Assembly (NCBI RefSeq): GCF_011045215.1
Contig: NZ_CP049202.1
Strand: one strand, 5' to 3'
Source: Escherichia coli
GTDB lineage: Bacteria > Pseudomonadota > Gammaproteobacteria > Enterobacterales > Enterobacteriaceae
DNA length: 64,000 nucleotides
A program made the position numbers and the translations under genes. Of this stretch, positions 1,998 through 3,702 are shown piece after piece; positions within the stretch are counted from its first letter, which is position 1, and every line of letters begins with the position of its first letter. The notes beneath the pieces were generated by a model. The model did not search any database, was not told the DNA's origin, and was given only the letters and a program-made list of their open reading frames with translations.

Positions 1998-3702
1998 GAG
2001 TTATTTTTCACGTAGCACACGCACTGTTTATGGATACAGGTATTCTGACCTGAACGCCCGGATCCTTCCACGACAATAAATCGCAGAGCGCGGATCCTTT
2101 TGTTTGCTTATCACGCATTATTGCGGGTAAAACCAAATACGTAAAGGCGCGTTTTGCCGCAGGGATCCTGTCTTAAGCCAGTCATGGTGCGGGCTGAGGA
2201 CTGGTTTGCCGTTTTTGGGAGAATTGGGAGAATTGGGGTAATGCCAGGATGAATGGGATCGGAGAATACAGAGAAAGGGAGAAGGTGCACAACGTGGTTG
2301 TTGACCACAGCCTGTTGAGATGACGACCAGCATCCTGTGCTGACTTAATATATGGATAATAATAATTTCAGTATCAGCCTGCAGAAATAAAGAATATACT
2401 CATACAATGAGTAGTGCGCAGATATATTTCCCCTGTTCAGGACAGGAAATGCCAATATATACAGGTGTATATAACCTGAAAAATACCACTAATTAGTAAG
2501 AAAACCTCCAGTATTTTACATTTGAGATAATCGGGGCAATGTCTGAACGGGACTGTGCGCTGTATGGATTCTGTTCTGGTATACCAGGCCAGTTTTCACA
2601 TAACAAATCAATATGGTTGTTAAGTTTTTGAATCTGTAAACCTGCGACAACGTCACTTGCTCGGTTTCCGACATCATTTATTTTTTCTTCGGTAATTTTT
2701 TGTACTGTCAGCGTTAAGGCTTATTTCGCTGTATTCAGCACCAACTGAAGCTTTAATCCTCTCGCTCCAGTTTGTAAGTGATCTCCCCTAGATAAGTATC
2801 AGCATCCTATCCCAAATTTTTTGCTATAATACTTCATAAAACATATCTAGCTTAACATGAATCGTTTCAAAAAAATGAAAAAATTAGGGATAGCAACATG
2901 TTCCTGACCGCCACGCCTGTACCGGTAAGAATGTCACAAAAAGCAAAAACAAGAACTGAATATACATTTATACTTTATTAACAGTTATTGGTTCTTACAT
3001 TCTGATCTCATCATTAGTGACTTTTGGATTATATTTGTATTTTTCCGCACTTCGGTGCGGTTTTTTATGACAGAAAACAAAGTAAGTGACGTAAAACTGA
3101 ATCAAGAAAATTCGCCTTCAGATCAGATACAAGCTTCTTCCGTTTCATCTCCCTGACAGCCAGTCAACTGCTGTGACAAGCCGAAAAGCAATAGCCAATA
3201 CTCACAGTCAGAAACAGGAAAGTTTCCAGTCTACCGTACCATCCCGTAAGGCACTCTCTACTCCTCAGCGATATTATGTGTGTTGAATCTCCAGTCAGTG
3301 ATTTGGCCGACGAGTCGTATGCCCACAACAATACGGATAACCCCTTCAGCACTCACCTGCTGATGAAATGAAACATTGATGAACCTGTCTGTTCACCAAA
3401 TGCCTAGAGAAATAGTGATTTATCTGAATGCAGTAAATAATGGCAAATCTATTCTATTATAGACTACAACCTGATAATACTTCTTGATAAACTGAACTGG
3501 TGTCAGCCATTACTATCCCATCTTAGCGTACAATATTGTACCCATGGTCGCATATTAAACGACCATGGGCCAGAAAGTATCCCTTTCGCACGCAGAACAG
3601 GCTGGAGCTCTCTGTTGAGAAGAACTACAAACAAGTATGGTTTATACTACGATATTAATTTTACAAAAATTAAACAGTTTTATAAAATTGTTTATTGTAA
3701 GT

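Follow-up and report, generated by a model that had tools for sequence, protein, structure and literature searches.

What lies between the recombinase gene and the fimbrial genes of the E. coli plasmid sequence NZ_CP049202.1? In the window, the 64,000-nucleotide stretch of this contig analysed here, 1,705 bp (1998–3702, hereafter gap A) separate the start of int, a tyrosine recombinase gene (1257–1997, minus strand; PF00589), from the stop codon of a PapD-type chaperone gene (3703–4431, minus strand; assigned by domain match). The original prediction described this stretch, together with two gaps beside adhesin genes, as strongly AT-rich, found no convincing open reading frame (ORF) in it, and suggested decayed genes, small RNAs or H-NS-bound silencing regions as its possible content. 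Our analysis indicates that gap A is most likely a junction scar, where the replication and maintenance backbone of an IncFIB plasmid meets an acquired fimbrial/adhesin island. With the same good confidence, its content can be read as accumulated wreckage and not as a functional unit in its own right.

The lack of coding content is borne out. Gap A is the longest stretch of the window without an ORF of at least 90 aa (the runner-up measures 986 bp), its longest ORF has 71 aa, and its longest stop-free run of 93 aa compares with a mean of 88 (sd 19) in shuffled sequence. No Pfam domain was found in it; sizeable conceptual peptides matched Pfam and NCBIfam families at chance level (Replicase, E = 0.11), and frame-corrected peptides and remnants were equally without a credible match in the two databases. 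The AT-richness was overstated for gap A, which has 39.8% GC against 45.8% for the window, ranks at the 23rd percentile of equal-sized sliding windows, and grades from 48% GC at 2000–2280 down to 26% at 3602–3702. It holds for the other two stretches, gap B (32.1% GC) and gap C (31.6% GC over 43913–44640). The window belongs to an IncFIB-type plasmid of E. coli and E. fergusonii isolates from ruminants, and its nearest relatives are IncFIB/IncFIA/IncFIC conjugative plasmids of these two species from sheep and cattle hosts. Most of the length of gap A is carried by seven plasmids in PLSDB and by two of 5426 complete E. coli genomes.

Decayed genes, the first of the suggested contents, are indeed present. 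Comparison with intact relatives, by DNA and by the translated search proposed as a check, recovered them in gap A, so that the refuting outcome named with the prediction, no remnant homology, did not occur; they derive from parE, a P-loop NTPase gene and IS911-like and IS66-family insertion sequences (IS); gap C holds a group II intron fragment, and nothing of this kind was found in gap B. The remnant closest to int is the 3′ part of a RelE/ParE-family toxin pseudogene, parE (2314–2480, minus strand), corresponding to aa 41–96 of 98. It shares ~80% DNA identity with the intact parE genes that lie beside int in other IncFIB plasmids, and tblastn of those intact ParE proteins against gap A aligns aa 41–96 at ~50% amino acid identity (E = 2e-10). 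Residues 1–40 are missing, the frame contains an internal stop, and it changes again near the C-terminus. An intact ParE relative matches PF05016 at 7e-12, while the remnant alone has no Pfam match; PGAP flags this remnant in pPSS-10_2 as an incomplete pseudogene that has a frameshift and an internal stop. No match to any of three ParD proteins was found by tblastn against 1900–3800. The remnant has the position and orientation of the parDE type II toxin-antitoxin module beside int, but it keeps only the 3′ 58% of parE, without parD, and is predicted to be unable to work as an addiction module. The parDE maintenance module has been destroyed in this ruminant-associated plasmid lineage.

Beyond parE, a trace of the parD-upstream region persists at 2507–2548, with blastn matches to 2972–3010 of the IncFIB relative L006 (77% identity, E = 2e-4) and to 3510–3546 of L005 (E = 0.003). 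Only ~40 bp of that region are left, and they include a decayed second copy (TTTGAGATAATCGGGGCAATGTCTGA) of a 26-bp element that is described below with its first copy. Next to it lies a decayed internal fragment of the NTPase gene (2562–2874, minus strand), equivalent to approximately aa 92–244 of the 557-aa protein WP_000026497.1, which is annotated as “hypothetical” or “DNA repair protein” and whose intact form has only weak nSTAND1 and AAA_22 matches. The fragment shares 76% DNA identity across 200 bp with hundreds of plasmids, and tblastn recovers it as pieces in three different frames (E = 6e-12). Intact orders in other IncFIB plasmids are repA-int-parE-parD and repA-int-parD-NTPase; in Klebsiella-type IncFIB plasmids, the NTPase gene comes after repA-int-parD. 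The blocks at 1998–2233, 2287–2458, 2507–2543, 2620–2819 and 2814–2874 are all collinear with L005 by blastn, and because of this collinearity the left part of gap A can be read as an IncFIB maintenance region reduced by deletions. In the F plasmid, ccdA-ccdB-resD likewise place a toxin-antitoxin pair before a resolvase gene in one transcription direction. The ancestral IncFIB order parD-parE-int, on one strand, has this same layout by analogy, with different gene families (ParDE rather than CcdAB).

The right part of gap A contains debris of two insertion sequences. A 47-bp internal fragment of an IS3-family transposase gene (2883–2930, minus strand), recognised by DNA identity to IS911/ISEc52-like elements, is 85–89% identical to ~1500 plasmid copies (E = 2e-6), with the match inside the transposase coding sequence; in translation, SYRYRRGGQEHVAIPN aligns with THRYKRGGHEHVAIPN. 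Compared with a complete IS911 or ISEc52, it has neither ends nor an ORF and consists of internal transposase sequence only. An IS66-family remnant (approximately 3339–3640, plus strand) comprises the 3′ two thirds of tnpB (orf2), a short spacer and the first codons of tnpC, and is marked by stops, frameshifts and deletions. It shows 67–69% DNA identity over ~225 bp to plasmid IS66-family tnpB/tnpC junctions (E = 8e-7), matches the window's own IS66 copy at 24211–24436 (E = 4e-6), and yields a frame-corrected peptide 33% identical to TnpB aa 37–110 (E = 8e-8). The Pfam model TnpB_IS66 finds no match in the remnant, which is too decayed for it. The canonical IS66 order of tnpB end, spacer and tnpC start is retained, and the palindrome of the IS66-family spacer is present in weaker form. 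Set against a complete IS66 element, the remnant is a fragment of ~300 bp without recognisable tnpA, tnpC body or terminal repeats; the terminal repeat GTAAGCG is absent from gap A.

Between the two IS fragments lies orphan DNA (2931–3338) with no detectable relative beyond this small plasmid lineage. Searches by blastn and tblastn of all plasmids matched only the same seven plasmids, blastn of 5426 E. coli genomes recovered this locus alone, again within this lineage, and scanning 100,044 species genomes for exact patterns, in two runs, gave no match. A comparison with 5.8 billion proteins returned a single match, an 81-aa E. coli hypothetical protein; matches in a metagenome scan were the same locus, and Pfam and NCBIfam gave no credible match. 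The orphan was also considered as tnpA or another 5′ part of the IS66 element, and this was rejected as tblastx against the window's IS66 copy gave no match. A resemblance of GTAAGTGACGTAAAAC at 3086 to the IS66 left end GTAAGCGTAAACC is too short to count.

With the parE, NTPase and IS remnants and the two ends discussed below, about two thirds of the length of gap A can be assigned to known sources. From these homologies we infer an order of events. The ancestral minus-strand order would have been NTPase gene, parD, parE, a spacer of ~360 bp and int, an arrangement still intact in other IncFIB plasmids. Deletions in this lineage would have taken parD, the 5′ part of parE and most of the NTPase gene; IS3-family and IS66-family insertions would have entered and later been cut to 47 bp and ~300 bp; and the fimbrial operon would have been brought against the IS66 fragment. 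The position of the fimbrial island against an IS66-family scar points to IS-mediated acquisition.

Junctions in large enterobacterial virulence plasmids are rich in pseudogenes and IS. Gap A is like them in having truncated maintenance genes and IS fragments between backbone and adhesin island and in evolving faster than its flanks, and nothing distinctive sets it apart from them; a scar of this sort is ordinary and already known in kind. For annotation, the stretch is better labelled with a parE pseudogene, an NTPase pseudogene fragment, IS3 and IS66 fragments and an operon tail than left unannotated or assigned spurious small ORFs.

Comparison of related plasmids shows how gap A evolves. 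Its blocks are mostly 91–96% identical to those of Ceylon31 and C5, the two more distant lineages, with at most five gap openings per block, while int and the genes for chaperone and usher are 99.1–99.7% identical to theirs, with synonymous divergence (dS) of 0.01–0.03. The middle of gap A differs by ~4–9% from these two lineages and by less than 2% from the closest relative, L002, which is 98–100% identical throughout. Across six lineages, variable columns per 60 number 3–12 inside 2130–3700, against 0–3 in the flanking genes and in 1998–2125, and the variability changes sharply at ~2130 and ~3700. Many of the indels are not multiples of three, and deletions of ~70 bp and ~255 bp each occur in single lineages. 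Because this high divergence and these frame-breaking indels contrast with conserved flanking genes, the middle of gap A is not under purifying selection; the part at ~2130–3500 drifts neutrally.

Several observations weigh against so simple an account. The divergence of gap A (~4–9%) exceeds the synonymous divergence of its flanks (1–3%) two to four times, so neutral drift on one tree is insufficient, and mosaic ancestry or recombination around the junction is probably involved. The ~400 bp of orphan DNA and a few short spacers, one quarter to one third of gap A, are not accounted for by any of the sources above. Two invariant features on one strand of the decayed middle, a hairpin with a T run and an extended −10 sequence, could mark a transcript, a point taken up below. 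The pattern of divergence is reversed against L002, where gap A differs by 0–2% and the usher gene has a dS of 0.04, and this too points to mosaic histories of recombination.

The working DNA of gap A is likely limited to its two ends, for which we infer roles as the int control region (left, ~130–290 bp) and as the tail or terminator of the fimbrial operon (right, ~190 bp). That operon, of the Pef/Afr chaperone-usher type, runs subunit-usher-chaperone on the minus strand, and approximately 3515–3702 (minus strand) is probably its 3′ untranslated tail, as RNA folding and conservation suggest. The minus-strand RNA of the tail folds at −57.6 kcal/mol, compared with −40.9 ± 4.2 for shuffles (z = −3.97; no shuffle out of 200 reached this energy). 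Just past the chaperone stop comes an A/U-rich stem-loop with a U run, and a G+C-rich hairpin of 10–12 bp lies at 3541–3569 (CCCATGGTCG...CGACCATGGG); inverted repeats were seen in the tail as well. The segment 3519–3578, with one variable column in 60 among the six lineages, is the sole conserved island that stands out in gap A, its conservation not being significant after correction for the windows examined, given the few lineages. The tail may act as a terminator or as a 3′ stabiliser.

The likeliest of the other explanations is that the AT-rich gaps are H-NS binding or nucleation regions silencing the adjoining acquired adhesin genes. This is unlikely overall, and gaps B and C are better candidates for it than gap A. 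Both of those gaps lie directly upstream of adhesin genes, and the genes concerned encode YadA head, stalk and anchor domains. With an AT content of 68%, gaps B and C reach 65% AT or more in 70–81% of 100-bp windows. In gap A the content is 60% and unevenly spread, with 27% of 100-bp windows AT-rich; this gap sits 3′ of the fimbrial operon, away from its promoter, and its drift and deletions speak against a function that is required. The high-affinity motif of H-NS has few matches, each with two mismatches, and any H-NS binding would be a passive consequence of base composition. At the promoters of pef, a related Salmonella operon, H-NS acts as the major repressor (PMC6844306).

Gap B (12953–13858, 906 bp) separates the start of a second chaperone gene of PapD type (12212–12952, minus strand) from a divergently oriented YadA-type adhesin ORF beginning at 13859 on the plus strand. 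It occurs only in the same seven plasmids, at 98% identity and without large indels, as would suit a working regulatory region, and showed no Rfam or Pfam match, no similarity within the window and no remnant homology; it is probably a conserved promoter and regulatory region. The adhesin downstream of it is split into two overlapping plus-strand ORFs, 13859–15454 (head, stalk) and 15444–16043 (head, stalk, anchor), and the first has no obvious signal peptide; the gene is probably a frameshifted or 5′-truncated pseudogene. Gap C (43913–44642) lies upstream of a gene for a 1175-aa YadA-type adhesin (40385–43912, minus strand) and ends at an IS3-family (IS2-like) element. The only relative that has it is plasmid A of E. 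coli C5, at 99.9% identity; there, an IS3-family transposase pseudogene is annotated directly after it. Within gap C, a 5′ ribozyme fragment of a group II intron (44450–44628, plus strand) is ~78% identical to ~48 plasmids, in which its counterpart lies 300–470 nt upstream of ltrA. The Rfam model group-II-D1D4-6 scores 15 bits on gap C (E = 0.074) against a gathering threshold of 49. Compared with a complete group II intron, gap C has ~180 bp of the 5′ region, truncated by the IS3-family element, and no adjoining reverse transcriptase gene. Conceptual peptides from gaps B and C gave no credible Pfam or NCBIfam match.

At the left end of gap A, 1998–2290 (minus strand) is conserved IncFIB backbone directly upstream of int, 94–97% identical in ~3800 PLSDB plasmids and in 3059 of 5426 complete E. 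coli genomes. Its core, GGATCCTTTTGTT..CGCATTATTGC.GGTAAA.CCAAAT.CGTAAAGG, is common to E. coli and Klebsiella plasmids, and its most conserved part, 1998–2125, has 0–1 variable columns per 60 against 3–12 deeper in the gap. The region is presumably the promoter and regulatory region of int and may possibly also be the recombination site of Int. A Xer-type core (dif/cer/psi-like) upstream of int was considered and dropped, as no convincing match was seen by eye; a literature search on the RepFIB-linked recombinase found nothing specific.

Tandem 9-bp units TTGGGAGAA / TTGGGAGAA / TTGGGGTAA at 2215–2241 (TRF: period 9, 2.6 copies, 100% match) form the first copy of the 26-bp element mentioned above, which consists of the 9-mers TTGGGAGAA TTGGGGTAA followed by TGCC and occurs as a direct repeat in two copies in diverse IncFIB plasmids. 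In alignments, the first copy in the window has one 9-bp unit more than in its relatives. The element sits at 2215–2249 and 2520–2548 in the window and at 2214–2240 and 2987–3012 in L006, with equivalents in L004 and L005. In intact relatives, the two copies flank parDE, one in the parE-int spacer and the other ~77 bp upstream of parD. The element could be a shared operator, ParD being a ribbon-helix-helix protein, or a site for the recombinase Int. To our knowledge, neither the int-upstream region nor the 26-bp element has been characterised, and both are relevant to thousands of plasmids. Near 2281–2300, C5, Ceylon31 and more distant IncFIB plasmids have ~55–65 bp that the window and the RHB plasmids lack. 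The missing segment is bounded by imperfect direct repeats, ..ACGTGAATTCTGACC.. and ..ATGTGGTTGCTGAC.., and its loss is consistent with deletion by recombination between them.

The conserved left end also bears on whether short protein genes have been overlooked in gap A, the candidates being the 71-aa ORF at 2118–2333 (minus strand) and an 85-aa “hypothetical protein” of the RHB plasmids. PGAP calls the first of these and its equivalents in thousands of IncFIB plasmids, under names that vary (“transcriptional regulator”, “serine/threonine protein kinase”), most relatives keep its frame open, and the extra 9 bp of the window leave it in phase. Its length and N-terminus, however, differ in every lineage (46–71 aa), an in-frame stop interrupts it in K. 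aerogenes, it belongs to no Pfam or NCBIfam family, and where it is conserved all three codon positions are conserved, as for a DNA site. The 85-aa ORF is broken in the window by a 1-bp insertion, contains the terminator hairpin described below, and is unannotated in the C5 and Ceylon31 lineages. Overlooked proteins are thus very improbable, and what is annotated as a small gene ahead of int is probably a DNA site.

Small RNAs, also among the contents proposed for the gaps, found no support: the Rfam matches there were compositional and below threshold. At the gathering score, Rfam 15 returned only ALIL and a group II intron across the whole window, both outside gap A; under permissive settings the best match in gap A was hilD_3p_UTR, with 28.5 bits against a gathering score of 74, and ARAGORN found no tRNA or tmRNA gene in gap A. 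The most specific candidate would be a plus-strand RNA of ~230 nt, running from just past a perfect extended −10 sequence (TGCTATAAT, 2823–2831, plus strand, read directly from the sequence and invariant in the alignment) to an intrinsic-terminator-like hairpin, CCGCAC-TTCG-GTGCGG followed by T6 (3045–3066, plus strand). Such an RNA would be antisense to the IS911-like fragment and could pair with IS3-family transposase mRNAs, given the 85–89% identity of the 47-bp stretch to IS911/ISEc52 transposase genes; if real, it could act in trans and damp IS3-family transposition on the plasmid. The −10 sequence and the hairpin are both invariant in four lineages, and the hairpin, which is invariant in all lineages, was detected by a terminator scan that found five terminator-like sites in the region against 1.2 expected. 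The candidate has no Rfam match, though, and the promoter-to-terminator stretch folds no better than shuffles (z = −1.57). Its interior varies at the rate of the remaining gap A, and in the Ceylon31 lineage a small ORF within it is without its ATG. A consensus scan found promoter-like sites as often as chance gives them in AT-rich DNA (7 against 5.3 expected) and omitted the site at 2823–2831. A small RNA here is therefore very improbable. Still more remote is a retained function of the kind in which a plus-strand, IS-dampening RNA was kept from the wreckage or the 26-bp element couples the toxin-antitoxin pair and the resolvase.

The reading of gap A as a junction scar places it between well-defined neighbours. 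On the backbone side, the window starts with a RepFIB-type replication gene, RepA (1–978; PF01051). On the island side, the chaperone gene is followed by an usher gene (4388–6796, minus strand; domain match) and a fimbrial subunit gene (6993–7523, minus strand). This major subunit is 73% identical to that of pCeylon31IncF (L009), with a dS of ~0.9, while the adjoining usher and chaperone are more than 99% identical to theirs; in the stretches fetched from two other relatives, the subunit gene had no match. Its divergence looks like allelic replacement or antigenic diversification.

Further wreckage of adhesin genes is found along the island. The plus-strand segment 9205–9564 is similar to the N-terminal portion of the adhesin ORF beginning at 13859, and 11992–12210 (minus strand) is a fragment resembling the gene for a 199-aa secreted protein at 8326–8925. 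At 49356–52264 (plus strand), short same-strand ORFs occur in series and are followed by a match to group II intron domain V/VI (52178–52264), and the series looks like a fragmented reverse transcriptase/maturase gene. Other ORF-free stretches lie at 59040–60025 and at 53699–54215, the latter being, with 22.6% GC, the most AT-rich block of the window.

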